A DNA stretch of 64,000 nt from an uncultured Thermoplasmata archaeon (lineage in GTDB: Archaea > Thermoplasmatota > Thermoplasmata > RBG-16-68-12): contig CAVYJM010000006.1 of NCBI GenBank assembly GCA_963768855.1, forward strand, positions 224,001 through 288,000, given 5' to 3'. Both the position numbers and the translations under genes were made by a program. Below are positions 24,523 to 38,693 of the stretch, in pieces. Positions within the stretch are counted from its first letter, which is position 1. Every line of letters starts with the position of its first letter. Below the pieces are notes generated by a model. The model did not search any database and had not been told where the DNA came from. It worked only from the letters and a program-made list of their open reading frames with translations.

Positions 24523-25203
24523 TCACGGCCCCGGCGGGCCGGGGGGCGGAGACAGCTGGGAGGGCGGATAGCTGGGCGGGGACGCCGGGAGCAGCTGCGG
24601 CGGGACGCCTCCAGGTGGAGGCTGCCATGCCGGGGCCAACGGCGGGAGAGCCGCGGCCTTCCGTCGCTTACGGAGGATGGAGAGGACGACCAGGACGCTT
24701 CCGACCCCGATCAACGCGACAAGGACGAGCCCGACGATGAGCCGCGTCGTATCCCCGCCGGCGTTTCCTACCTGAGCGCTCACGACGACCGTCGCGCTCG
24801 CCGCTCCCATGGCCCCGGAAGACGAGATCGGGGCGTTGTCCACCACGAAATAGTAGGTCGCCACCCGAGGCGCGGTGAAGCTCCCGGAGAACGACATCGT
24901 GTTCTCTTGCGTGCCGGCCGAGTAGTATCCGAAGGTGAGCTCCATCGGATCCTTGTATTCCGCGTAGCTCGTCGCGTTGAACAGGTAGACGTCCACGGGC
25001 CCTCCTGCGGTGACTCGCACGGAGAAGGTGAACGGAGACGCGGGCGAGAGGCTCACCCCGTACGCCTTGTACTCGTCCGACGGGAGCGTGAGGGTCTCGG
25101 ACATCGTATTGCCCATCATCGTCTCCATCTGTGCGCTCGCAAGCGGGAGCAGCACCGCCATCAGCACGATTCCGACGAGAACGGACGCGATGGCGCCGGT
25201 CAC
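24523..25203 (-). CDS. Single-pass membrane protein with beta-sandwich (p24/GOLD-like) ectodomain and Pro-rich tail
   Basis: Signal peptide ...LLPLASA; GGPVDVYLFN and YYFVVDN strands; TM LIVGLVLVALIGVGSVLVVLSIL followed by RKRRK; PPLAP/PPSYPP tail. Confidence 0.75.
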   Translation of the reverse strand: MTGAIASVLVGIVLMAVLLPLASAQMETMMGNTMSETLTLPSDEYKAYGVSLSPASPFTFSVRVTAGGPVDVYLFNATSYAEYKDPMELTFGYYSAGTQENTMSFSGSFTAPRVATYYFVVDNAPISSSGAMGAASATVVVSAQVGNAGGDTTRLIVGLVLVALIGVGSVLVVLSILRKRRKAAALPPLAPAWQPPPGGVPPQLLPASPPSYPPSQLSPPPGPPGP

Positions 25204-25326
25204 GTGTTTCGTATGGATCCCTCCGGTCTCCCGAACGCAGGTGGGGCACCATGTAACTGTCCTACTTACTCGCGCGGGTCCCGGCGGCCGGGAAACGTTT
25301 TACGCCGCTCGGTCCATGGCGCCGCG

Positions 25327-26109
25327 ATGGCCCCCCGGAGTCCCCATCCCGAGCCCGACCCGGCCGGCTCCCTCGCCGGACGTTCGGCCCTGGTCACGGG
25401 CGGCTCCCGCCGGATCGGGAAGGCGATCGCCCTCGCCCTGGCCCGCCACGGCGCGGACGTTGCGATTACATACCGGACCCAGCGGCGGGACGCCGAGACC
25501 GTCGTCGGGTCCGTCCGGGCGATGGGCCGCCGGTCCATCGCGATACGCGCCGACCTGACGCGGCCTGCGGACTGTCGGCACGCTGTCTCGTCCGCCGCCA
25601 AGGCCCTGGGACGGCTCGACATCCTCGTGAACAACGTGGGCGAGTGGATCGTGAAGACTGTCGAGGCGACGGACCTCGAGGAATGGCGAGAAGTCCTCGA
25701 TTCGAACCTGACCGCTGCCTACCTGTGCTCCCGCGCGGCCCTGCCCCACATGCGCGCGCACGGATGGGGGCGGATCGTGAGCATGGGAGCCGCGGGCGCG
25801 TACCGCGCGCACGGCACGGCCCGCATGTCCTCGTTCTACGCTGCGAAGGCCGGGATCGTAGCGTTTTCCAAGTCCCTTGCGCGGGAGGTCGGTCGGGACG
25901 GGATCACGGTGAACGTCGTTTCCCCCGGCGTGATCGCGGACCCGGAGTTGTCCCGGGCCCGCGCGCGGCGGCGGAAGGATCCCGACACCGCCGTCCGGCG
26001 GCCGGGCACGGGCGCGGACGTCGCGGCGGCCGTCCTGTTCCTCGTCTCGGACGACGCGGAATTCATCACGGGGGATGTGGTCGGGGTCACCGGTGGCTGG
26101 CTCCTCTGA
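25327..26109 (+). CDS. Short-chain dehydrogenase/reductase (FabG/FolM-like)
   Basis: ALVTGGSRRIG, LDILVNNVG, GRIVSM, GITVNVVSPG; ATG 25327. Confidence 0.9.
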   Translation: MAPRSPHPEPDPAGSLAGRSALVTGGSRRIGKAIALALARHGADVAITYRTQRRDAETVVGSVRAMGRRSIAIRADLTRPADCRHAVSSAAKALGRLDILVNNVGEWIVKTVEATDLEEWREVLDSNLTAAYLCSRAALPHMRAHGWGRIVSMGAAGAYRAHGTARMSSFYAAKAGIVAFSKSLAREVGRDGITVNVVSPGVIADPELSRARARRRKDPDTAVRRPGTGADVAAAVLFLVSDDAEFITGDVVGVTGGWLL

Positions 26110-26216
26110 GGCGATCATTATTTCTGTGAGTGAATAATTATCTCCCGAGCAGCGGCGCTTCCCACGCGGACGCGATGCGGGCACGCTTAAGTGGCCTCAC
26201 ACCGTTTCGGGGAGGC

Positions 26217-27359
26217 GTGGCGGCGGGCCTCGTCTACCATCCGGACTACCTGCGGTACGACTTCGGCGGTGACCACGCCCTGCGGCAGCTCCGAGTGCGC
26301 CTGGCCCGCGATCTCATTGCCGACTACGGCCTCCTCAAGGAGGCGGAGGAGATCCTTCCCATCCCCGCAGGGCCGGAGGCGGTTGCCCGCGTCCACACCG
26401 AGGACTACCTGTCCGTCGTGAAAGACCTGAGCGTCCACCCGAAGGGTGCGGCCTACCAGCACGGCTTGGGCACTGCGGACAACCCGGTGTTCGAGGGGAT
26501 GTACGAGGCGACCCTGCTCCACGTCGGCGGGACCCTGCGCGCCTGCGAGGAGGTCGCTTCCGGCCGCCGGACTCGCGCGATGACCCTGGGAGGCGGCTTC
26601 CACCACGCGATGCGCGACAAGGCGTCCGGGTTCTGCATCTTCAACGATGTGGCGGTGGGCATTCAATCCCTCCTGGAGGACCACAAGCTCCGGCGGATCC
26701 TCTATGTCGACATCGACGCCCACCATGCGGACGGCGTCCAGTCAATCTTCTACGAGGATCCGCGCGTCCTCACGATCTCTCTCCACGAGGACGGTCATTA
26801 TCTCTTCCCGGGGACCGGGTTCACGGACGAAATCGGGGCCGGCGAGGGACGTGGGTATGCGGCGAACGTGCCGCTCCCTCCCTACACCCGGGACGTGTCC
26901 TACCTGTACGCGTTCCAGGAGATCGTGCCCCCGCTCGCTCGCGCGTTCAAACCGGAGCTGATCGTCAGCCAGCTCGGCGCGGACGGTCACTATCTCGACC
27001 CGCTCACGCACCTCATGCTCACCACGGAGACCTACGAGGCCGTCGGCATGATGCTCGACGGACTCTCGAAGGAGCTCTGCGGCGGTCGCTGGATCGCGAC
27101 GGGCGGCGGCGGCTACGAGGTCACAGCGGTGCCGCGCGTTTGGACGGTCATGTTCGCCACGATGAACGGCCGCGAGCTCGAGGACGCGCTGCCCGCGGAG
27201 TGGCTCAGGGAGTGCAACCACCTGGCGGGCTCCGTGCCTCCGGACAAGTCGCTGCGGGACCACGTGCACGCGGAGGAGGAGACCCATGTTCCTCGCGCCG
27301 CGAAACGCGTCGTCGACGAGCTCCGCAAAACGCTGTTCCCTCTCCACGGAATCCGGTGA
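26217..27359 (+). CDS. Zn-dependent deacetylase (HDAC/AcuC family)
   Basis: GGGFHHA, SGFCIFND, DIDAHHADG, SLHE, FPGTG, GADGHYLDPL, GGGGY; start uncertain (26130, 26175 or 26217). Confidence 0.92.
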   Translation: MAAGLVYHPDYLRYDFGGDHALRQLRVRLARDLIADYGLLKEAEEILPIPAGPEAVARVHTEDYLSVVKDLSVHPKGAAYQHGLGTADNPVFEGMYEATLLHVGGTLRACEEVASGRRTRAMTLGGGFHHAMRDKASGFCIFNDVAVGIQSLLEDHKLRRILYVDIDAHHADGVQSIFYEDPRVLTISLHEDGHYLFPGTGFTDEIGAGEGRGYAANVPLPPYTRDVSYLYAFQEIVPPLARAFKPELIVSQLGADGHYLDPLTHLMLTTETYEAVGMMLDGLSKELCGGRWIATGGGGYEVTAVPRVWTVMFATMNGRELEDALPAEWLRECNHLAGSVPPDKSLRDHVHAEEETHVPRAAKRVVDELRKTLFPLHGIR

Positions 27360-27698: not shown

Positions 27699-29258
27699 AT
27701 GACCAACGACGAGGTCGACGAGAAGGTGTCCAAGTCGGCGGAGGATGTGCGCGATGAGTTCGAGGAGAAGATGGACCGGCTCCGTCGCCAGTACGAGCGG
27801 GACCTCCACTCCTTCCGCTACGAGATTGAGGAACGGGAATACCGCCTCAAGGCGTACGAGGACAAGTTCAACAAGATCAAGCAGCCCCCGCTCCTGTACG
27901 CCTACGTCATCCGCAAGGAGGGGCCGGACATGGACGGAAACCAGGTCGTGGTCGCCCGCGCCACAGAGCTCCTGAAGGTCTCCACCGGCCTCGCGGACAA
28001 GACCCAGCTCCAGGTCGGACAGTACGTGTGGGTGCACCCCCAGACCTACGCGATCGTCGAGGGGAGTGCCGTCCGCAACGAGGGAGTGATCGCGAAGGTC
28101 GTGGACATGATCGACGGCAAGCTCGTCGTGTCGGTCGAAGGGGACATGGAGAAGCGCCTCGTGTCGTGCGACAAGTCCGTGTACAAGAAGCTGAAACCCG
28201 GATTCCAGATCAGCGTGCTTCCTCCGACGATGGAGGTCCTCGACATCCTCCCGAACTTGGAGGTGAAGTCTCTCCTCCTCGGGGAGAAGCCGAACGTCTC
28301 CTATGCGGCGATCGGCGGGCTCTCCGAGATGATTGAGCGCATCAAGGACGTCGTGGTCCTGCCCTACCGCGAGGCGAAGCTGTTCGAGCAGATCAAGCTC
28401 GAGGCCCCGCGCGGCATCCTGCTCTACGGCCCGCCGGGCTGCGGCAAGACCCTCCTGGTGAAGGCAATCGCCACGGAGAACGACATGACCTTCTTCAACG
28501 TCAGCATCGCGGACGTCCTCTCGAAGTGGGTGGGGGAGTCCGAGCGGATCATCAAGGAGATTTTCCGCCAGGCCCACGAGAAGAAGCCGAGCATCGTTTT
28601 CTTCGACGAGATCGAGGCCCTCTTCACGGTCCGGGGGATGATGGACACGTCGGGCGTGCACAAGAACATCATCGCTCAGATCCTGAGCGAGATGGACGGC
28701 CTGGTCCGCCTGCATGACGTGTTCGTGATCGGAGCGACGAACCGCGCGGACCTCGTCGACCCCGCGTTGCTGCGGCCCGGACGCTTCGACGAGATCATCG
28801 AGATTCCGAGGCCCGAGCGGGCCGCCGCGGAGGAGATCCTCAAGATTTACCTGACGGACGACCTGCCGCTCGCCGTGGACGTGGTCCAGGAGTACGGCGG
28901 CCGCTCGGAGGCCGCGCAGGGTCTGCGGCGCTTCGTCCTGGACGAGCTCTATGGCGAGAACAAGTGGGTCAAGGTCAAGCTGGACGCCGAGGCGAACGAG
29001 GCGATCAAGACGGTCAAGCGGAAAGACATCATCTCCGGCGCGATCATCGAGGCCATCATCAAGACGGCGAAGAAGAACTACGTGAAGCGTGTGATCGCCC
29101 TGAAGAAGGGCGACCGGAAGAAGGAGGGCCTGACGGCGCGGGACCTCGAGATGGCCATCGAGGAGGAATGCAAGGAGCACGCGATCACGGAGATGTACAT
29201 CTACGAAAAGCGGCAGCGGGAGGTCTTCCGGACCGGCGCGGACCCGATGGTCGGGTGA
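27699..29258 (+). CDS. arc: ARC/Mpa-type proteasome-associated AAA ATPase
   Basis: N-terminal coiled coil then QPPLLYA and a double-length interdomain (two OB folds); Walker A GPPGCGKT; Walker B FFDEIE; SRH TNRADLVDPALLRPGRFD; ARC-type insert YLTDDLP...DIISGAIIEAIIKTAKK. Confidence 0.85.
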   Translation: MTNDEVDEKVSKSAEDVRDEFEEKMDRLRRQYERDLHSFRYEIEEREYRLKAYEDKFNKIKQPPLLYAYVIRKEGPDMDGNQVVVARATELLKVSTGLADKTQLQVGQYVWVHPQTYAIVEGSAVRNEGVIAKVVDMIDGKLVVSVEGDMEKRLVSCDKSVYKKLKPGFQISVLPPTMEVLDILPNLEVKSLLLGEKPNVSYAAIGGLSEMIERIKDVVVLPYREAKLFEQIKLEAPRGILLYGPPGCGKTLLVKAIATENDMTFFNVSIADVLSKWVGESERIIKEIFRQAHEKKPSIVFFDEIEALFTVRGMMDTSGVHKNIIAQILSEMDGLVRLHDVFVIGATNRADLVDPALLRPGRFDEIIEIPRPERAAAEEILKIYLTDDLPLAVDVVQEYGGRSEAAQGLRRFVLDELYGENKWVKVKLDAEANEAIKTVKRKDIISGAIIEAIIKTAKKNYVKRVIALKKGDRKKEGLTARDLEMAIEEECKEHAITEMYIYEKRQREVFRTGADPMVG

Positions 29259-29261
29259 GCG

Positions 29262-30560
29262 ATGAAGAAGATGGTCCAGGGGACCGAGCACGAGTACACC
29301 CTGTTCTGTCGCAGGATGGGGTCGATGGGGTTCGATCCCCACACCGTGGCGCTGGATCTGCTCCGCGAGAGCGACCTCCACCTCGCAGGCGAGTACATCA
29401 CGAACGGCTCGCGCGTCTACTACGACGTCGGGCACTTCGAGGTCAGCACGGCCGAGACGACGAACTTCCACGACGTCGTCGTTTGGGAGAAGGCCGGGGA
29501 GAAGGTCCTCGACTGGCTCCGCCGGGTCATGGAGGACAAGTACACGGACGGGTCCACGAAGATCCACGCGTTCAAGAACAACACCTCGCCCGACGGCACG
29601 TCCTACGGATCCCACGAGAACTACTGCGTCGCTCGCGGCGTGCCGTGGCCGGGCCGCTTCGTCCGGGACCTCGTCCCCCATCTCTCGACGCGGGTTATCT
29701 ACACCGGCGCGGGCGACATCATCCGCGGAAAGTACGTCCTGTCGCCGATGGCCTTCCTCACCTCCCAAGTGATCAGCGGGGAGACGATGCACGACACGGG
29801 CATCCTGAACACGCGCGATGAGCCGCATGCGGACGGCCGCCTCTGGCGTCGCCTGCACGTCATCGTGGGGGACGCCCTCATGAACGAGACGGCGATCATG
29901 CTGCGCCACTTCACGACCTCCGCCGTCCTCCAACTCATGGAGGCGGACGGCCTGAGGGACGTGCCCCGACTCAAGGACCCCGTCCGCGACCTGTGGCACA
30001 ATGTCGAGACCCGGATCCCGGACCAGTGGCGGATCGAGCTCGAGGACGGATCCGTCGTGTCTCCGATCGACATCCAGCGGTACTATCTCTCAAAGGTCGA
30101 GCCGCTGGTCGAGGACGCGTGGGAGAAGCGCGCCCTGAAGACCTGGGAGGAGGTCCTCGACGACCTGGAGAACCGGCGGTCGAAGGAGGCCGCCCACCGC
30201 GTCGAGTGGCTGGACCGATGGTTTGCCATCCAGGCCGCCACGGAGGACAAGGAAGGCCCCGACGTCGAGATGATGGCGTGCAAACAGTACTCCGAGATCG
30301 GTGCGGAGCGCTCCCTGTTCTACAAGAGGCAGAGGGAAGGCCTCGTCGACCGGATCACGGACGACGAGACGATCAAGGCCGCGATCACGACGCCACCGGA
30401 CGACACCCGTGCACGTCTTCGCCGGGAACTTTGCGACACCTTCAATATCGAGATGATTGATTGGTCTGTACTGGTCGTGAACGACGGGAGCCGGCGGCGG
30501 ATCGATCTTCCGGATCCGTACGCCACAAAGTTGGAGGCGACCTATGCCACTGCAGGTTGA
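29262..30560 (+). CDS. Pup-ligase/deamidase (PafA/Dop) family enzyme
   Basis: GTEHEY, NGSRVYYDVGHFEVSTAE, WEKAGE, KNNT...SYGSHENY, NTRDEPHA, RRLHVIVGD, PPDDTRARLR, DWS..VND...DPY, all collinear with PafA/Dop. Confidence 0.93.
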   Translation: MKKMVQGTEHEYTLFCRRMGSMGFDPHTVALDLLRESDLHLAGEYITNGSRVYYDVGHFEVSTAETTNFHDVVVWEKAGEKVLDWLRRVMEDKYTDGSTKIHAFKNNTSPDGTSYGSHENYCVARGVPWPGRFVRDLVPHLSTRVIYTGAGDIIRGKYVLSPMAFLTSQVISGETMHDTGILNTRDEPHADGRLWRRLHVIVGDALMNETAIMLRHFTTSAVLQLMEADGLRDVPRLKDPVRDLWHNVETRIPDQWRIELEDGSVVSPIDIQRYYLSKVEPLVEDAWEKRALKTWEEVLDDLENRRSKEAAHRVEWLDRWFAIQAATEDKEGPDVEMMACKQYSEIGAERSLFYKRQREGLVDRITDDETIKAAITTPPDDTRARLRRELCDTFNIEMIDWSVLVVNDGSRRRIDLPDPYATKLEATYATAG

Positions 30561-30720
30561 GGAGAAGCCGAAGAAGCGCAAGAAGCAGGAGAAGAAGCTA
30601 GAGTTCGAAGCGGGAAAGGTCTTCAGCCCGGGTGAAGTGAAGGAAGAGGACTTCGAGCTCGACCTCGACTCGGCACGGTATCGGGCATCGAAAGGGGAGG
30701 GCGGCGATCGCCGCGCTTGA
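30544..30720 (+). CDS. Pup/UBact-like small modifier, 58 aa (MPLQVEEKPKKRKKQEKKLEFEAGKVFSPGEVKEEDFELDLDSARYRASKGEGGDRRA)
   Basis: Translated by hand; SD GGAGG at 30533-30537; overlaps the PafA/Dop stop; highly charged and low in hydrophobics; DSARYRASKGE resembles the UBact C-terminal RYRQxxGE. Confidence 0.75.
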   Translation: MPLQVEEKPKKRKKQEKKLEFEAGKVFSPGEVKEEDFELDLDSARYRASKGEGGDRRA

Positions 30721-30783: not shown

Positions 30784-32064
30784 ATGGCCACCCACGTGGA
30801 CACCTTGGAGAACGGCCTCAAGGTGATCCTCCGCCCCATGCCGGACACGAAGGCCCTCTCTTGCTGGGTCACGTACCGCGTCGGCTCCCGCAATGAGGTC
30901 CCCGGCATGACCGGCTCGACGCACTGGGTCGAGCACATGCTGTTCAAGGGAGGCGGGAAGCTCAAGAAGGGCGAGATCGACCGCCTCATCAGCCGGGTCG
31001 GCGGCAAGATGAACGCCTTCACCGACACGGACTTCACGACGTACTTCGAGACAATCCCCGCGTCCGAGATGGACACGGCCCTCATGATCGAGTCCGAACG
31101 GATGCGGAACGCCGCCTTCGATCCGAAGGAGGTCGAGGCGGAGCGGACCGTCGTGATCAGTGAGCGGGAGGGCGCGGAGAACCAGCCCGAATTCCTCGCC
31201 GAGGAGGAGCTCTGGGGCCTCGCCTTCCACGTGCACCCGTACCACTGGACCGCGATCGGGTACAAGCAGGACCTGGCCAAGCTGGACCGCGACCCTCTCT
31301 ACCAGCATTACCTCCGGTACTACGCGCCGAACAACGCGTTCCTCGTCCTCGTGGGCGGCTTCGACCCTGCGGTCGCGATGCAGCACATCCGGGAGTCCTT
31401 CTCGCCCCTGAAGCCCGAGCCGATCCCTCCGGTCATGCGCCTCGTGGAGCCGGAGCAGCACGGGGAGCGCCGGAGTGACCTCGAACGGCCCGGGGCGACG
31501 GACCTCTTCAGCGTCGGCTGGCACATCCCGCCGTTCGTCCACGAGGACACGCCCGCGCTGATCCTCCTCGCGACGATCCTGGGCGGTTGGCATGGGCTCA
31601 CCCCCTTCGCCGCGGGCGACTGGCACTCCCGCTCAAACCGGCTGTACCGTGCGCTCGTCGACGCGAAGCTCGCGACGGACGTCGGCGTGCGGCAGGAGCT
31701 GAAGCTCGACCCCGCGCTCCTGATCGTCAGCGCGACCCTCGCGGGCAAGATTCCGCTGGACCGGGTCGAGCACGTCCTGGACCGCGAGGTGGACCGCCTG
31801 CGCAAGGCCCCGCCCTCCAAGGCGGAGATGGACCGCGCGAAGCGGCAGGTTCGCTCGTGGTACCGCTACGAGCACGACGGGGTGACGTACCAGGGGATGC
31901 TCCTGTCCACGCTCGAGGCCCTCTCCGGCTGGGATGCGGGGGAGGGCATCCTGACGAAGGTCGACCGGCTCCGGCCGAACCACGTGCGGGAGGCCGCGCG
32001 CCGGTATCTCGTGGAGGACCACCGAAGCGTCGTCCGCTTCCACGCCCAGGAGGCGCCGTCGTGA
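30784..32064 (+). CDS. M16 (pitrilysin/MPP-like) metallopeptidase, catalytic subunit
   Basis: LENGLKVI, YRVGSRNE, GSTHWVEHMLFKG (HxxEH), NAFT, YAPNNA. Confidence 0.95.
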   Translation: MATHVDTLENGLKVILRPMPDTKALSCWVTYRVGSRNEVPGMTGSTHWVEHMLFKGGGKLKKGEIDRLISRVGGKMNAFTDTDFTTYFETIPASEMDTALMIESERMRNAAFDPKEVEAERTVVISEREGAENQPEFLAEEELWGLAFHVHPYHWTAIGYKQDLAKLDRDPLYQHYLRYYAPNNAFLVLVGGFDPAVAMQHIRESFSPLKPEPIPPVMRLVEPEQHGERRSDLERPGATDLFSVGWHIPPFVHEDTPALILLATILGGWHGLTPFAAGDWHSRSNRLYRALVDAKLATDVGVRQELKLDPALLIVSATLAGKIPLDRVEHVLDREVDRLRKAPPSKAEMDRAKRQVRSWYRYEHDGVTYQGMLLSTLEALSGWDAGEGILTKVDRLRPNHVREAARRYLVEDHRSVVRFHAQEAPS

Positions 32065-33317
32065 CGCTCCCCGACCGCGCGGTTCTGGACAACGGGGCGG
32101 TCGTCATCTCGCAGCCCCTCTCCTCGAACCCCTTCATCGCCTTCCGGGGCAGCGTCCCCGCCGGGACGGTCTCGGAGGGCACGGACTTCGGCGTCGCCGA
32201 GTTCGCGGCGCGGCTGCTCCTCGGCGGCACGCGGCGCGCCTCCGCCGCGAAGCTCGCGGACCGCCTCGAGGGGATCGGCGCGACCCTGGAGTTCCACAAC
32301 TCCCAGGAGCTGCTCGTCTTCTCGGGACGTTGCACGCGGGAGACCGTCGCCGAGACCGTGCGGATCCTGGTCGAGTGCCTCTCGCAGCCCGCTTTCCCCG
32401 CCAAGGAGGTCGAACGCGTCCGAGGTGAGCTCCTGAATGACCAGCGCATCGAGGAGGACGATCCCCGCCAGCGCGCCTACCGCGAGTTGCTCCGGATCGT
32501 GTTCCCGAAGGACCACCCGTACGGGCGGGACCCGAAGGGCGGCATGGACCGGATCCGGCGCATCAAGCGGGCGGACCTCGTCGCGTTCTACGAGGAGCAC
32601 ATCGGTCCGGACGGCCTCATCTTCGCGATCACAGGGGACGTCGACCGCCAGGTCGTCGAGACGGCCGTGGCGGCCCCCCTAGCTCGATTCCACGGAGAGG
32701 CCGTCGCGGTGCGAATTCCTCCACCGCCGCCGTACAAGCCGCGGAACGCGACGATTCCCATGCCCCACAAGTCCCAGGCGGACATCGTTGTGGGCGCCCC
32801 GGCGATCCCCCGGTGCCACGACGACTACTACCCGCTCCTCCTTGCCAACCTCCTCTTTGGTCGGATCGGGCTCTTCGGGCGCCTCGGCACGACCCTGCGC
32901 GACGAGCTCGGCCTCGCGTACTACGCGTACAGCAGCCTGGACGCGCGCACCGCGGGCGGCATGTGGTCCATCAATGTCGGCGTGAACCCGTCGAATCTCG
33001 CACGGGCCATCGAGGGCGTGCGGCACGAGATGGACCGCCTCCGCTCGAACCCCTTCCCGGCGGGCGAGATCCAGGATGGGAAGGACAACCAGGTCGGCTC
33101 GCTCATTGTCTCCCTCGAGCGGAACGCGGAGGTCGCGTCCGAGCTGCACCGCATGGAGTACTACGGCCTCGGGATGGACTTCCTCGAGCGGTACGGGGAG
33201 ATCATCCAGGGGCTCACCGCCGAGACCGTGCGCGCGACCGCCGCGAAGTACTTCAGCCCGCCGGAGAGCTCGATGGTCGTCGCCGGTCCGGTCGGCCGGT
33301 CGCGTCTCACGCTGTGA
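32061..33317 (+). CDS. M16 peptidase, non-catalytic partner subunit
   Basis: LDNGAVV, GVAEFAARLL (no HxxEH), SQADIVVG, RDELGLAYY; GTGA start/stop overlap with the catalytic subunit. Confidence 0.9.
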   Translation: MTLPDRAVLDNGAVVISQPLSSNPFIAFRGSVPAGTVSEGTDFGVAEFAARLLLGGTRRASAAKLADRLEGIGATLEFHNSQELLVFSGRCTRETVAETVRILVECLSQPAFPAKEVERVRGELLNDQRIEEDDPRQRAYRELLRIVFPKDHPYGRDPKGGMDRIRRIKRADLVAFYEEHIGPDGLIFAITGDVDRQVVETAVAAPLARFHGEAVAVRIPPPPPYKPRNATIPMPHKSQADIVVGAPAIPRCHDDYYPLLLANLLFGRIGLFGRLGTTLRDELGLAYYAYSSLDARTAGGMWSINVGVNPSNLARAIEGVRHEMDRLRSNPFPAGEIQDGKDNQVGSLIVSLERNAEVASELHRMEYYGLGMDFLERYGEIIQGLTAETVRATAAKYFSPPESSMVVAGPVGRSRLTL

Positions 33318-33449: not shown

Positions 33450-36400
33450 ATGAAGTCATTGACACAACGGACACTCGTAGTGCTGCTGGCATGGGTGATG
33501 GTTTCCGCGGCGCTCGTCGTCGCGGCTTCGGGGTCGGTGCGGGCGGCCGCCGTCACGGCTCGTGGACCGGCCGTCGTGATGACGGGAACGCCGGCCCCGC
33601 TGGTTCCGGCCCCCGATCCTGCGGTGGAGCGCTTCCTGCAGGGTAGTCCGGCGGATCCGAGTTACTGGGGGAAGATGAGTTCCTCCGTCCAGTCCGCGGC
33701 CCGCGTGGCGAGCGGGACGATCGAGGTCGCCATCTACACGGACGAGGTGTCCGAGCTCGGTGCCCTGCTGCGGAAGGCCGGAGTCGAGACCCAGATCGGG
33801 TCCGTTCCGTCGACCTACGCCGGACCTCGCGTGGTGACGATCGAGGTCCCCGCGAAGCTCCTGGAAAAGATTGCGACCCTTGACCACGTCGTCGCGGTCG
33901 CCCCGGCCGTCGTGCCGCAGGTCCCCGACCAGGCCGACCCGGACCTCCCCGCCCGCGCGGACGCGGGCGCCCCGGCACCGACGATCATCGAGGCGGGCAA
34001 GGGCCACCAGGTCCCGGAGGCATGGGCCCTCGGCTTCAACGGCACGGGGATCAACGTCGCGGTCATGGACAGCGGCGTCGACTTCGGCCACCCGGACCTC
34101 CAGGGCACGTTCGCCCGCGATCCGAACCCCAGCTCCCCGTACTACAACTGGCCGATCGCCTTCGACCCCAATTCGATGTTCCGTTATCTCGTCGGCGGCA
34201 TGACCTTCCCCGCCGCTCCGGGCTCCTGGTATGTCAACACGAGTTTCGCCACGACGGCGAACCCGGGGAACGGGACGCTCGATGCATCGTTCAACGGCCA
34301 CTTCTACAACGTCTTCGGCATCCCGAGCCTGAGCGGGTTGTACCACCTCGGGGTCCACCCGGACCTCACCCTCTACTACTGGTGGTTCGGGGAGCGCCCC
34401 GCGGTCCTCGTGACCGACGCGAACACCCCGGGCGTCTATGACACGGTCTACGTCGACCTGAACGACGACTACGTGTTCGGCGACGATCGGGCGGTCGACG
34501 TCAACTCGCCCGTGGCTTGGGACGACCTCGATACGGACGGGGTCGCCGACGTGTCCGGCGGCATGGTCTACTTCATCGCGGACGGGATCAACCCCGTCCC
34601 CTACTCCGACGTGGTCGCGAACCGGTACGGCCTCCCCCTGCCCACGCCCGGCTCCGGCGATCTGGTCGCCTTCATGATTGGCGACTACTTCGCACCGGGC
34701 GGCGACCACGGGACTCTCTGCTCCTCCGCGATCGTGGCCCAGAACCAAACGGGCCACGTCCTCGGGTTCGCCCCGGGGGCCAAGCTCATCGCGGTAGGTG
34801 ACATCTACTCCGGCGGCTTCGCCTACGACATCTATGAGTTCGTCGGCGAAGGCTACGACGGCGTCTCCGACACGGGCGACGAGGCCCAGGTGGCCTCCGC
34901 CTCCTTCGGCTACTCTGGCATCTTCAACGACGGCTGGGACTACGAGGCCCGCTTCGTCGAGCTCATGTCCTACATCAACATGGGCACGGCCTTCACCGTG
35001 TCCACGGGGAACGGCGGGCACGGTTTCGGCACGGTGACCTCTCCGGGTTCGAGCAACGGCGTCATCGCCGTGGGCGCGTCGACGAGCTACAACAAGGAGC
35101 TCGGCGTCGAGGGCTTCGAGGATGCAAACCACTCCACCTTCGGAGACGTCCAGCCGTGGTCCAACCGGGGTCCGAGCACCCTCGGGAACACGAAGCCCGA
35201 CGTGGTTACGGTGGGCGCTTGGGCGACCGGTGATGGGGCGCTCAACTCCTTCGGGTTCGCCCCGCCATGGACGGTCTGGGGCGGGACCTCCCTCTCGGCC
35301 CCCGCCACCGCAGGGATCGTCGCACTCATTGCGGAAGCCTGGACTAGCAACGGCATGGGCACGCCCTGGGCGAACTTCATCGGGAAGCTCCTCCTGGACG
35401 ACGGCGCCACGAACATCCACTACGATCCGCAGGTGATGGGACACGGGCTGGCGAACGCCTACCGGTCCGTCCTCGCCGCGAGCCTCCAGGGAGGCGTCCT
35501 CACGTACGACGCCAACGCGTCGTTCCTCCCGAGCGCGGACTGGACCGCGGGGGACTATCGGGGCGTGAAGTATCCGAGCTTCGCCCGGATCATGTCGCCC
35601 GGCCAGACGAACACAACGACCCTTGCGGTCCTGAACGCGGACCAGGTGAACGAAGATGATATCACGGTCTCGGACTGGGAGCTCCAGCTCTCGGACACGC
35701 AGACCTTCGCGTTCAACGCCTCCAACGCGGAGGAGAGCACTCCCGATTTCCTGCGGCCGGACTACCTCATGGACCTGACGCCGTACGTCCCGGCGGAGAC
35801 CAACCTCGTCAAGGTCACGGTCAGCTACCCGTACTCGGAGTTCGACCCGAACGGGAACTACGTGCAGGACAGCAGCTGGCGCCTCGTCCTCTATGATTGG
35901 GCGGACTACAACACGAACGGGATCTTCTGGAACGACGCGAACGGGAACGGCGTGGTCAACGCCGGAGAGATGGACAGCTCGAGCGGCACGGAGGTCATGC
36001 GTTTCACCTACGGCTACCCGACGGGGACGAACATCGAGGCCTTCGTGCACGATCCGATCTCGAGGATCCACACGGGTCTGTTGCTCGGCCTCCAGCACCG
36101 CGCCGTCTCGGCCCTCGTGCCGACCACGAACCTGACCGTCACGGTGGACTACTATGAGGCGGCGGACGCGCCGTGGCTGTCGACGAGCCTCCCGAGCGCG
36201 GTCATCTCGCCGCTGGGGATGATCCCGGTGTTCGTGGACGTGACCCTGCCCGCGAACCAGCCCTTCGGCACACTCTCCGGGATGGTCACGATCTCGAACT
36301 CCACGGACGTGGAGACGGAGATCCCGGTCCTCGTGAACGTCGCAGCGACCGGGACGGACTTCACCTTCGGTGGAAATTCGTCGAGCACCGCGTTCCTGAA

Positions 36401-38693
36401 CAACAACCGGGTGTTCGGCGGGAACGACTGGTCGTGGCGCGCAGAGGCCGGGGATTGGCGATTCTTCTTCACGGACATCCCCGACAGCACGCCGATCAGC
36501 CCGGGAGACACCCTCCTCGTGCACACCTCGTGGGAGAACGTCCCGACGGACATCGACACCGTGATCATGGGCCCGACGCCGGACTTCCAGTTCAGCGGGC
36601 CCGGCAGCCCCTGGGGACCGTACACGCTGGACACGGTTGGTGCGAGCGCGAATACCCTGATTACCGCGGGTACCTGGGCGTTCCAGACCGCCACGGGCGG
36701 TCCGGAGGAATGGGTCGCCGCCCCGCTCCAGACCGGGCTCCACGAGATCGCGCTGCACGATGTGAACTACGCGGGCTTCGGTCCCTCCGAGGTGTTCATG
36801 GGAGAGGTCGGTCGCTTCAGCCTGACCCCGAACCCGTGGATCGTGTCCACGCCCAACCTGACGGGGTCGTCGTCGTTCGCAACGAACTCCTCCCTCACCC
36901 TCCCCGGTCTCGATGTGGCAGCCTTCGGCGTCGCACAGCCCGTGGCGGAGGACAGCGTGTCGATCGGCCAGGGGGACTCCTGGATGACCTTCTTCTCCGC
37001 GGCGAACATCGGGGTCATCGACCTGCAGATTGACGAATCCTACCCGCAGGGGATGGACATCGATCTGTACCTCTATCGTTGGACCGGAAGCACGTACGCG
37101 CTGGTGGCGTCCTCGGCGGGTTCTACGGCCTCGGAGCACATCCGGCTCACGATGCCGGCCGATGGGGACTACGCGGTTCTCGTCGACGGGTACTCCGTGC
37201 CCGCGGGGACCGGATACTTCGACTATTTCCAGGCGGTGGTCGCGGGTGCGAACCTGATGCCGATGAACGTGCCGACCTCGACGATCCCGGCGGGAATCCC
37301 CTCCGGGTTCGACGTTGCCTGGAACTTCGACCCGGAGATCGAGCCCTTCCAGATCTATCTGGGCGTCCTCTTCGTCGGACCGAGGGGCGCCCCCGCAATT
37401 GAAGTGGACGGGCTCTTCCTCACGTACGACGACTACGCGCCTCTCGTGCAGTCGACCGACCCGGCGAACGGGACCTCGATTCGGACGCGCGTGCCGACGA
37501 TCACCGTGAGCTATGTGGACCCGGAGATCACCTCCGGCATCTCGAACGTGGCGTTCCTGCTGGACGGGCTGGACATGACGTTCGCCGGAACCTGGAACGA
37601 GACGAGCTTCGTGTGGTCCATGCCGTTTGACCTTTCCGAGGGAACCCACGATCTGGAGATTGTGATTTGGGACCACGCCGGTTTCAGCACGTCCTACACC
37701 TGGGTCTTCACGGTCGACACGACGGCGCCTCCGCTCTCGGTGACTTCGCCGGCGTACGCGCTGACGAACAGCGCCTTGGCGACGGTCGCCGGAGCCACTC
37801 AGGCGGGTGCGAAGCTCACCGTCAACGGGAACCTCGTCACCGTGGGCTCAGGCGGCGCGTTCAGCACGACGGTCACGTTGGTCGAAGGCACGAACACCCT
37901 GACCGTGGTCGCGACCGATCTTGCCGGGAATTCCGCGACCGTCGTGAAGACGGTCGTTCTGGACACGCTCCCTCCGGCGGTGGCCATCACGTCCCCCTCG
38001 GACGGCGACCCCATCGCCGACGTCGTCCATGTGGTCGGCACAGCCGAGCTCGGCGCACACCTCACGGTGAATGGGGTGAACGTCGCGGTCGACTCGAGCG
38101 GAGGCTGGAACCTGGATCTCTCCTTCGCGGGCGGCAGCCACACGATCACCGCCACGGCGACGGATACGGCCGGGAACTCCGCGACGGCGACCGTGACGCT
38201 CGCCTTCGACACCACGGCACCGATCGTGTTCGTGACAGCTCCCGCGAACGGCCTCACGACGAACCACTCCTCAGTGGTCGTCAGCGGGACGGTCGATGAT
38301 GTCACGGCCATCGTCCTCGTTAACGGAATCGTGGTGCATCCGAACGCCCAGGGCGCGTGGTCGGTACCGATCGCCCTCCTGGAAGGCAGCAACACGATTA
38401 CCGTGTCCGCGATGGACCCGGCCGGCAACATGGCGACCGCGGTGACCCGGCAGGTGACGTACAACTCGCCGATCCCCGGTCTCCAGAACGGGATCGACAA
38501 CAACCAGAACGGGATTGATGCGAACCAGCAGTCGATCAACGGGCTGTCCGGGAACCTGCTGTACGGCCTCATCGGCGTCCTCGTCGTCGCGCTCGCGGCG
38601 ATCGGCGTGGTCTATGTCCTCCTGAGCCGGAAGATTGTGGCGAGCAGCGGGAAGAAGCTCGAAGCACCGAAAGAGAACAAGGGAGAGCCCTGA
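33450..38693 (+). CDS. Membrane-anchored pyrolysin-like S8 serine protease (1747 aa) with PPC and Ig-like repeats
   Basis: Signal peptide; VAVMDSGVDFGHPDL (Asp), long insert, DHGTLCSS (His), GNGG oxyanion Asn, KPDV, GGTSLSAP (Ser); DIDLYL PPC domain; DTTAP Ig repeats; C-terminal TM. Confidence 0.93.
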   Translation: MKSLTQRTLVVLLAWVMVSAALVVAASGSVRAAAVTARGPAVVMTGTPAPLVPAPDPAVERFLQGSPADPSYWGKMSSSVQSAARVASGTIEVAIYTDEVSELGALLRKAGVETQIGSVPSTYAGPRVVTIEVPAKLLEKIATLDHVVAVAPAVVPQVPDQADPDLPARADAGAPAPTIIEAGKGHQVPEAWALGFNGTGINVAVMDSGVDFGHPDLQGTFARDPNPSSPYYNWPIAFDPNSMFRYLVGGMTFPAAPGSWYVNTSFATTANPGNGTLDASFNGHFYNVFGIPSLSGLYHLGVHPDLTLYYWWFGERPAVLVTDANTPGVYDTVYVDLNDDYVFGDDRAVDVNSPVAWDDLDTDGVADVSGGMVYFIADGINPVPYSDVVANRYGLPLPTPGSGDLVAFMIGDYFAPGGDHGTLCSSAIVAQNQTGHVLGFAPGAKLIAVGDIYSGGFAYDIYEFVGEGYDGVSDTGDEAQVASASFGYSGIFNDGWDYEARFVELMSYINMGTAFTVSTGNGGHGFGTVTSPGSSNGVIAVGASTSYNKELGVEGFEDANHSTFGDVQPWSNRGPSTLGNTKPDVVTVGAWATGDGALNSFGFAPPWTVWGGTSLSAPATAGIVALIAEAWTSNGMGTPWANFIGKLLLDDGATNIHYDPQVMGHGLANAYRSVLAASLQGGVLTYDANASFLPSADWTAGDYRGVKYPSFARIMSPGQTNTTTLAVLNADQVNEDDITVSDWELQLSDTQTFAFNASNAEESTPDFLRPDYLMDLTPYVPAETNLVKVTVSYPYSEFDPNGNYVQDSSWRLVLYDWADYNTNGIFWNDANGNGVVNAGEMDSSSGTEVMRFTYGYPTGTNIEAFVHDPISRIHTGLLLGLQHRAVSALVPTTNLTVTVDYYEAADAPWLSTSLPSAVISPLGMIPVFVDVTLPANQPFGTLSGMVTISNSTDVETEIPVLVNVAATGTDFTFGGNSSSTAFLNNNRVFGGNDWSWRAEAGDWRFFFTDIPDSTPISPGDTLLVHTSWENVPTDIDTVIMGPTPDFQFSGPGSPWGPYTLDTVGASANTLITAGTWAFQTATGGPEEWVAAPLQTGLHEIALHDVNYAGFGPSEVFMGEVGRFSLTPNPWIVSTPNLTGSSSFATNSSLTLPGLDVAAFGVAQPVAEDSVSIGQGDSWMTFFSAANIGVIDLQIDESYPQGMDIDLYLYRWTGSTYALVASSAGSTASEHIRLTMPADGDYAVLVDGYSVPAGTGYFDYFQAVVAGANLMPMNVPTSTIPAGIPSGFDVAWNFDPEIEPFQIYLGVLFVGPRGAPAIEVDGLFLTYDDYAPLVQSTDPANGTSIRTRVPTITVSYVDPEITSGISNVAFLLDGLDMTFAGTWNETSFVWSMPFDLSEGTHDLEIVIWDHAGFSTSYTWVFTVDTTAPPLSVTSPAYALTNSALATVAGATQAGAKLTVNGNLVTVGSGGAFSTTVTLVEGTNTLTVVATDLAGNSATVVKTVVLDTLPPAVAITSPSDGDPIADVVHVVGTAELGAHLTVNGVNVAVDSSGGWNLDLSFAGGSHTITATATDTAGNSATATVTLAFDTTAPIVFVTAPANGLTTNHSSVVVSGTVDDVTAIVLVNGIVVHPNAQGAWSVPIALLEGSNTITVSAMDPAGNMATAVTRQVTYNSPIPGLQNGIDNNQNGIDANQQSINGLSGNLLYGLIGVLVVALAAIGVVYVLLSRKIVASSGKKLEAPKENKGEP

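Follow-up and report, generated by a model that had tools for sequence, protein, structure and literature searches.

We analysed a 64,000-nucleotide stretch of DNA from an uncultured Thermoplasmata archaeon (the window; GenBank assembly GCA_963768855.1, contig CAVYJM010000006.1, positions 224,001 to 288,000), in which three consecutive genes encode an ATPase resembling Mpa, one enzyme of the PafA/Dop family and a protein of 58 aa. A preliminary description, made from the letters of the sequence, had proposed the small protein as a modifier of the Pup/UBact kind whose Gly-Glu motif is followed by a six-residue extension. The cassette has the following features, with positions counted from the first letter of the window:

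27699..29258, + strand: cassette gene 1, Mpa/ARC-like AAA+ ATPase, 519 aa (Pfam AAA and Prot_ATP_ID_OB_C)
29262..30560, + strand: cassette gene 2, Pup_ligase-family enzyme, 432 aa (PF03136, 1e-89, 302 bits)
29796..29798, + strand: Thr179 codon of the enzyme, at the site of C. glutamicum PafA Arg201 and A. cellulolyticus Dop Arg221
30533..30537, + strand: Shine-Dalgarno-like GGAGG, read from the sequence, 6 nt before the ATG of gene 3 and within the end of the ligase gene
30544..30720, + strand: cassette gene 3, Pup-like 58-aa protein (P0001), 58 codons from ATG 30544, TGA at 30718-30720
30679..30699, + strand: putative Pup-like reactive motif Y46-R-A-S-K-G51-E52, with E52 encoded by GAG at 30697-30699
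30700..30717, + strand: conserved tail G53-G54-D55-R56-R57-A58, followed by the TGA at 30718-30720

The small open reading frame (ORF) at 30544-30720 is a genuine protein-coding gene under selection. Its full product by direct translation is MPLQVEEKPKKRKKQEKKLEFEAGKVFSPGEVKEEDFELDLDSARYRASKGEGGDRRA, in which a basic N-terminal patch is followed by LEFEAGKVF, the acidic segment EEDFELDLD and then SARYRASKG-E52-GGDRRA; the C-terminus reads ...DLDSARYRASKGE-GGDRRA. The ATG at 30544 is the first start past an in-frame TGA (30478-30480), and the first 17 nt of the ORF lie within the 3′ end of the Pup_ligase gene (29262-30560). A word-indexed search reported 159 homologs of 57-63 aa (E≤1), and those with a name are annotated as 'hypothetical protein' in Thermoplasmata or Methanobacteriota metagenome-assembled genomes (MAGs). 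A genome scan located the ORF at 62 loci among species-representative Thermoplasmata MAGs, with a single copy in the window's genome, and the profile of the family obtained 92 matches in a library of 1.84 billion representative proteins. Across 29 orthologs of equal length, the ratio of nonsynonymous to synonymous differences (pN/pS) was 0.14 for the whole ORF, at a pS of 0.74 that places synonymous sites near saturation. The gene itself, its good Shine-Dalgarno sequence and its location where Pup/UBact genes lie, all noted in the preliminary description, were upheld. Contigs from soil RNA libraries (four libraries, two studies), which carry relatives about 90% identical, span the operon and the junction of the ligase gene and the small ORF. 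As the runs contained 6-8% of the sampled words and the contigs represent relatives only, with no starts, ends or strand and with possible DNA carry-over, they give a weak hint that the small ORF is expressed. Neither the small protein nor its divergent relatives matched a family in Pfam, NCBIfam, PHROGs, PADLOC or the ESM Atlas; the Pup models PF05639 and TIGR03687 did not match it (Pfam at E≤10, NCBIfam at E≤1), and a six-frame search of the window's genome with PF05639 found no Pup gene at E≤1.

The cassette was intact and in the same order (Mpa-like ATPase, one PafA/Dop-family enzyme, small ORF) in every locus with upstream DNA, about 50 in all, and in these the small ORF started at or inside the stop codon of the ligase gene. 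The small protein, which we refer to as the tag, has the size (58 aa, within 50-90 aa) and the position beside a PafA/Dop-type enzyme and a proteasomal ATPase that are expected of a Pup. Of the window's genus, 32 of 36 genomes carried the ligase gene, as did members of several neighbouring families; 22 of 401 genomes in a sample of the phylum and 44 of 61 close relatives were positive. It is the only Pup_ligase gene of the window's genome (93.6% complete), and one copy per genome was found in 21 of the 22 positives of the phylum sample, the last one (G113) having two fragments on two contigs. Most of the 44 positive close relatives were single-copy too, their second matches being mostly fragments. 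One second match in the same genus (G407:C74:192-1526) was full-length and canonical (574 bits, positions 1-440 of the hidden Markov model, HMM), where archaeal-type enzymes by contrast obtained about 300 bits with an HMM match from position 69; this ligase probably reflects contaminating bacterial DNA in the MAG. From clade to clade the genes beside the cassette vary (CoA ligases, NosD/PKD, GNAT). A reading of the cassette as a defence system was rejected, as the ATPase gave generic AAA matches only, the ligase and the tag gave none, and the cassette is near-universal in the genus.

By its match to PF03136, its fold and its catalytic residues, the enzyme belongs to the Pup-ligase/Dop family. 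It scored 261 bits against the PafA equivalog model TIGR03686 and 256 bits against the Dop equivalog model TIGR03688, below the respective cut-offs of 551 and 492 bits. Its sequence matches in the PDB were Dop (182 bits) and PafA (164 bits), and its fold model resembled both equally (TM 0.82-0.85). The alignment with Dop begins at query residue 37 and Dop residue 77, and the Dop-loop of about 40 residues is missing from the enzyme. The metal and catalytic residues E9, E11, Y53, D55, E60, H118, R185 and H199 are invariant, and all of these except R185 correspond to Mg/catalytic residues listed for Dop (PMC8599861). The alpha-loop, which according to Hecht et al. (2020) discriminates ligase from hydrolase (PMC7947786), reads S172-G-E-T-M-H-D-T179 and is neither of the PafA type (S-S-A...R-S-R) nor of the Dop type. 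In the apo AlphaFold model the pLDDT of this loop (residues 160-179) is below 50, at which the helix of PafA and the loop of Dop are indistinguishable. NCBI annotates the enzyme as 'PafA2 family' (Dop) and the small ORF as hypothetical. An ungapped alignment anchored on NTRDEPHAD puts Thr179, invariant in 28 archaeal enzymes, at the site of the PafA/Dop Arg; residue 178 is mostly Asp in the archaeal enzymes, Lys in Dop and Ser in PafA. In PafA, R201 makes the only salt bridge, a weak one, to the poorly ordered C-terminus of Pup (PMC8599861). Since Thr replaces this Arg while the tag has an invariant R56, there is circumstantial evidence that the archaeal enzyme may not expect a free terminal carboxylate.

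The ATPase scored 353 bits against the pup_AAA model TIGR03689, under the cut-off of 505 bits. Its C-terminus is DPMVG (last five codons, 29244-29258) and not GQYL or HbYX. All of 17 distinct orthologs, the most distant at 55% identity, have this ending, whereas the residues immediately ahead of it vary, and it may represent a novel C-terminal docking motif in place of GQYL or HbYX. The 20S genes are not beside the cassette but elsewhere in the window's genome, and a link of tagged proteins to the 20S proteasome may be supposed.

Position 52 of the tag is confined to two amino acids. In 56 genomic sequences G51 was invariant and residue 52 was Glu in 38 and Gln in 18, with no third residue; in 202 family proteins the counts were 87 and 115, the exceptions (V, P) being a few singleton metagenomic reads. 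At least nine changes between E and Q are needed on a tree of 44 cassette ligases built by maximum likelihood. Since this is as many as shuffled labels need (8-10), the two residues appear to interchange freely over short time scales, while a third is not tolerated. The Pup chains in the PDB end in ...RAYVQKGG[Q/E], with Tyr at -6 and Gly at -1, as are Y46 and G51 relative to E52. In Pup, a terminal Gln is turned into Glu through deamidation by Dop, and the Glu is then ligated by PafA (PMC12288473, PMC7947786). The strict E/Q, its flips as in Pup and the same Tyr-x4-Gly-[EQ] spacing agree with the Pup/UBact-like motif that had been noticed at first, and on these comparisons residue 52 is rather likely to be the reactive residue.

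The residues that follow are conserved even more strongly. In all cassette-linked genes the tail consists of six residues, GGDRR[ATS], and its codons have the lowest pN/pS of all segments (0.08, same 29 orthologs). The residues G+1, G+2, D+3, R+4 and R+5 were kept throughout a set of 56 distinct DNA sequences, although between them these used every codon for Gly (four), Asp (two) and Arg (six), and in all 56 the stop codon was at +7 from E/Q. Because the amino acids are kept across synonymous codons, with a pN/pS of 0.08, the tail is selected at the protein level and is no indel artefact, as the preliminary description had already argued. The profile search of the 1.84 billion representatives extended this pattern: all full-length intact family members carry [FYW]-x-[AG]-x-[KH]-G-[EQ]-[GAS]-G-[DTNSG]-R, and G54 and R56 do not vary anywhere in the wider family, be it in relatives of 30-40% identity or in virus-borne ones. 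Beyond the conserved Arg the wider-family sequences diverge, with 2-73 further residues, some of them Cys-rich and some probably folded. A Pup has G-[E/Q] at the extreme C-terminus (Iyer et al. 2008, PMC2588565); here six residues follow E52, and at least four follow in all relatives except truncated or aberrant singletons. The evidence supports the view that GGDR(R-x) is a functional element rather than a disposable cap. D55 was rejected as the ligation residue: the earlier suggestion that ligation might occur via the Asp of GGD is unlikely, as relatives have T, N or S there.

The predicted complex of the enzyme and the tag obtained an ipSAE of 0.82 (0.82, 0.83 and 0.82 in separate runs), where the best of three controls reached 0.01. 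Of 80 solved complexes, 58 attained the mark used for ipSAE, as did 2 of 110 mismatched pairs. The three runs had at least 88% of the contacts in common, with a partner pLDDT of at least 66. At the level of residues, the tag side of the confident interface was predicted to run from residue 17 to residue 56, so that G53-R56 are part of it and R57 and A58 are not. The enzyme side of the predicted interface comprised strand 1 (residues 11, 13, 15, 17), the catalytic Asp region 55-58, residues 113-118, alpha-loop residues 163-168 and 174-179, residue 201 and the C-terminal domain. The model thus places the tag in the predicted Pup groove and active site of the enzyme, from which we infer that the two bind. 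Altogether, the small protein is very probably a real partner of the PafA/Dop-type enzyme.

Two groups of related sequences were observed outside the cassette. A second, unlinked paralog of the tag (MxQLQMEPRARKKKK...KG[EQ]GGDRR[ASGV]), with the same six-residue tail, occurs in several cassette-bearing MAGs (L069 5992-6162; also L068, L070, L051, L065, L075). In L069 it sits between a cupredoxin-like gene and a cluster of HTH, HMG-CoA synthase and thiolase genes. The L075 copy is found in a MAG with a bacterial name, yet it has neighbours of the L069 type, and L075 is probably mis-binned. The second group comprises long-tailed tag homologs, matching the family profile at E 1e-7 to 1e-10, which, wherever the context was readable, lay on virus-like contigs of up to 81 kb and carry KG[EQ][AG]G[TNSD]R with 14-73 extra residues:

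L077 10001-10216 and L078 10001-10234: contigs of 81 kb, GC 44-48%, homolog between ThyX/DUF3310 and a family-B DNA polymerase, directly upstream of the latter; RNR, dUTPase and primase present
L079 8001-8246 (71 kb) and L080 7008-7253 (32 kb): contigs with RNA ligase and dCMP deaminase
L081 773-1042: homolog adjoining a virion structural protein of 1852 aa
L012 129-494 and L013 609-977: homologs in arrays of small ORFs

No Pup-type ligase was found near the virus-borne homologs in the 3-20 kb examined per contig, and a scan of IMG/VR with an alignment of the virus-type subgroup yielded no confirmed loci. The virus-borne homologs suggest a contest between virus and host around the pathway.

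The reading that we prefer, to which we assign a probability of roughly 45%, is that the small protein is the tag of a compact three-gene archaeal system of the Pup type (unfoldase, gamma-glutamyl enzyme, tag), which reacts via the internal residue 52 while the tail is kept. The tag would bind the Pup groove of the enzyme via LEFEAGKVF and the acidic/aromatic segment, and G51-[E/Q]52-G53-G54 would thereby be set in the ATP/Mg site, the flanking glycines letting a mid-chain residue reach the pocket. The lone enzyme would activate the side chain of residue 52, driven by ATP as in PafA when it is Glu; Gln52 would be deamidated first or take the same acyl-phosphate route as in Dop. The enzyme would then couple residue 52 to a lysine of a target protein, and the ATPase would engage the tagged protein. 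The invariant GGDR-R-x would serve in recognition and remain attached, so that the conjugate would be branched. We favour internal ligation because G-[EQ]-[GA]-G suits a mid-chain residue entering a deep pocket, because a Glu inside the chain offers its side-chain carboxylate to chemistry just as readily as a terminal Glu, and because PafA grips the terminal carboxylate of Pup loosely (PMC8599861). Conjugation of the tag is putative, and retention of the tail during the reaction has, in our estimate, somewhat less than an even chance. The preliminary description had named an internal Glu as an alternative ligation site; this has become the preferred reading, with E52 itself as the residue, although the tail may be cleaved. 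In its widest form the reading remains tentative: a Pup-type ligase would join the tag via an internal Glu/Gln, set in a turn flanked by glycines and read together with GGDR, the branched conjugates would bear the tail, a single enzyme would serve as deamidase and ligase like the inferred ancestor of Dop and PafA, and the look-alikes encoded by archaeal viruses, fused to viral domains, would hijack or jam the process.

Several observations weigh against internal ligation. We know of no report of ligation via an internal Glu, and PafA, in the systems known so far, acts on a C-terminal Glu (PMC2588565, PMC8599861). As for the likeness to Pup, none of about 210 family members is encoded with an end at G[EQ], and no HMM ties the small protein to Pup. 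The alpha-loop is Dop-like at E174-T175, in a region of low model confidence, and the enzyme could be mainly an amidase. The ATPase carries none of the known 20S-docking motifs. Complexes of PafA with Pup and of Dop with Pup have been solved, and the score of the predicted complex may reflect likeness to these rather than binding of its own. Finally, the virus-borne relatives with tails of 10-70 residues and no ligase nearby fit a cleaved fusion or a docking module equally well.

The alternative that fares best, which we consider less likely but viable, above all in view of the variable viral tails, is that the tag is made as a pro-form, as first proposed in the preliminary description. Some endopeptidase would cut after E/Q52, or a carboxypeptidase would trim the tail, ...KG[E/Q]-COOH would be ligated in the canonical way, and [GA]G[DTNS]R would be the prime side of a protease site. 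This accords with all known Pup-type ligation, which proceeds via a C-terminal Glu (PMC2588565, PMC8599861), and the wide-family tails after G[EQ][GA]GxR vary in length (2-73 residues) and sequence, like cleavable fusions. There is also a pair of M16 peptidase genes just downstream of the cassette in the window's genus, which is listed here with the other neighbours of the cassette:

within 24907-27359: genes upstream of the cassette, a 400-aa protein with an SDR domain and a histone-deacetylase-family protein
30784-32064 and 32061-33317, + strand: M16 peptidase pair (Pfam M16 and M16_C), GTGA stop/start overlap
within 33450-38693: ORF of 1747 aa, downstream of the cassette

About 30 loci have the M16 pair 3′ of the cassette; all are in the window's own clade, and a gap of 0.7-1.7 kb is often present. 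In the window's genus the ligase is present in 32 of 36 genomes and the first peptidase (M16A) in 34. Families f54 and f56 have both the ligase and M16A, on different contigs or 53 kb apart. With the window's protein as query M16A was not found in the ligase-bearing families f57 (ligase in 5/5, genomes 93-97% complete) and f55, nor, in the phylum sample, in the ligase-bearing f17, f34 and f36; M16A orthologs of 38-43% identity were found in eight of nine genomes of f3, which lacks the ligase. Loci of clades with no adjacent M16 pair (e.g., L002, L005, L061, L071) carry the identical tail. We rejected the M16 pair as an obligate maturase because it adjoins the cassette in the window's genus alone, because other ligase-bearing families have M16A unlinked or yielded none, and because the same tail occurs in clades that lack the adjacent pair; it is probably no part of the system and looks like a housekeeping peptidase of the lineage and a chance neighbour of the cassette in this genus.

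No protease is kept with the cassette across the clades, and the pro-form faces further difficulties. Conserved motifs with variable tails had been predicted for it, yet the cassette-linked tails are an invariant GGDRR[ATS] of fixed length and form the most constrained segment, unlike a disposable cap. A cleavable precursor would have a dispensable or variable tail and a co-occurring protease; the cellular genes show neither, and it is in the virus-borne relatives that tails vary. The absence of a G[EQ] end from the encoded family members, the Thr of the enzyme in place of the PafA/Dop Arg (which in PafA contacts the terminal residue of Pup) and the modelling of tail residues 53-56 on the enzyme argue in the same direction. 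The proposal of a pro-form thus stands as regards a possible cleavage and the varying viral tails, but not as regards the cellular tail, which is invariant, most constrained and modelled on the enzyme, nor as regards a conserved protease.

It is less likely still that the small protein is not conjugated. It would then be a non-covalent regulator, pseudo-substrate or adaptor, lodged in the groove of an amidase like Dop and/or recruiting the ATPase, or a substrate modified at Glu/Gln52 (deamidated, or amidated with a small amine), with the virus-borne copies serving as docking modules or inhibitors. The single enzyme, the Dop-like E-T of its alpha-loop and its NCBI name (PafA2, Dop, family) would fit such a role, as would the virus-borne homologs, which have extra C-terminal domains, some Cys-rich, and no ligase nearby; linear Pup fusions are moreover known degrons (PMC12288473). 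However, side-chain chemistry leading from either residue to a single product, as in Pup, is the simplest account of why E and Q alternate strictly and flip often. In addition, the enzyme has no Dop-loop and a full ligase-competent catalytic set, and the gene order is that of mpa-dop-pup. A spurious ORF or sequencing artefact, with the extension arising from an indel or the ORF being non-coding, might be suspected in a high-GC genome rich in chance ORFs for a protein with no family-model match, but is refuted by the conservation data (frame and stop position common to the 62 species-level loci with synonymous-only substitutions, the pN/pS of 0.14 and the 92 distant relatives in the large protein library).

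Whichever mechanism applies, the chemistry of tagging or the maturation of the tag most likely differs from any described, because Gly-Glu/Gln is never terminal and a more conserved tail always follows. Pup-type tagging is regarded as bacterial, and tagging in archaea is attributed to beta-grasp SAMPs or ubiquitin-like proteins. Our literature search for an archaeal Pup-like system found no paper. An entire clade of soil and sediment Thermoplasmata carries a minimal three-gene Pup-like cassette, the tag of which breaks the rule of a free C-terminal Glu/Gln obeyed by Pup and UBact proteins. If the internal residue is ligated, the chemistry of ligases with the GS fold would be extended and proteomics would gain a new mass signature; if the tail is cleaved, this would be the first pro-Pup and would imply an unknown maturase.

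Among known systems, the Pup/PafA/Dop/Mpa system of actinobacteria is resembled in the order of ATPase, Dop/PafA-type enzyme and small charged protein, in an enzyme with the Pup_ligase fold and all catalytic residues, in a residue alternating between E and Q after a Gly and six residues past a conserved aromatic (compared with the C-termini of Pup chains in the PDB only), and in the modelled position of the tag in the Pup groove. The archaeal system differs in that the tag has no match to a Pup sequence model, that its E/Q is internal and followed by the invariant GGDRR[ATS], and that one enzyme stands in place of the Dop and PafA pair, with no Dop-loop and with Thr for PafA R201 and Dop R221. 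Also, the ATPase ends in DPMVG instead of GQYL, no 20S genes are adjacent, and the host is an archaeon.

UBact, which Lehmann et al. are said to have described in 2017, is reportedly a Pup homolog of Nitrospirota, Verrucomicrobiota and other phyla that ends in ...YRQR[TS]G[EQ], and it is reportedly likewise found in mpa/dop-type loci outside Actinobacteria. By this reported ending it resembles the archaeal [YF][RK]A[QS]KG[EQ]. It differs in reportedly ending exactly at G[EQ], whereas the archaeal heptad is internal, and the archaeal tag had no NCBIfam or Pfam match. The precursors of ubiquitin, SUMO and Atg8 share with the archaeal tag that residues are encoded after the conjugated one, and virus-borne copies of the tag are fused to other sequences. 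Those proteins have a beta-grasp fold and an E1 thioester, in contrast to a disordered tag and gamma-glutamyl activation; their tails vary, whereas the archaeal tail is invariant and of fixed length, and no dedicated protease was found here.

With respect to the enzyme, the closest comparison is with the Planctomycetes, the single-copy PafA/Dop-like enzymes of which served as the outgroup in Hecht et al. (2020) and are about equidistant from Dop and PafA (PMC7947786). The archaeal enzyme is likewise single and about equally distant from the two; the Planctomycetes enzymes differ from it in their bacterial origin, in an identity of about 30% to Dop and PafA and in a partial alignment with the Dop-loop (PMC7947786). 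Membrane-inserted Pup ligases were reported in Rhodopirellula and Plesiocystis by Iyer et al. (2008; PMC2588565). Hecht et al. mention neither archaea nor an internal reactive residue, and they infer a promiscuous ligase/amidase as the ancestor of Dop and PafA (PMC7947786). Whether the tail of the archaeal tag is kept or cleaved, a one-enzyme system with interchanging E and Q would provide a natural model of that ancestor.

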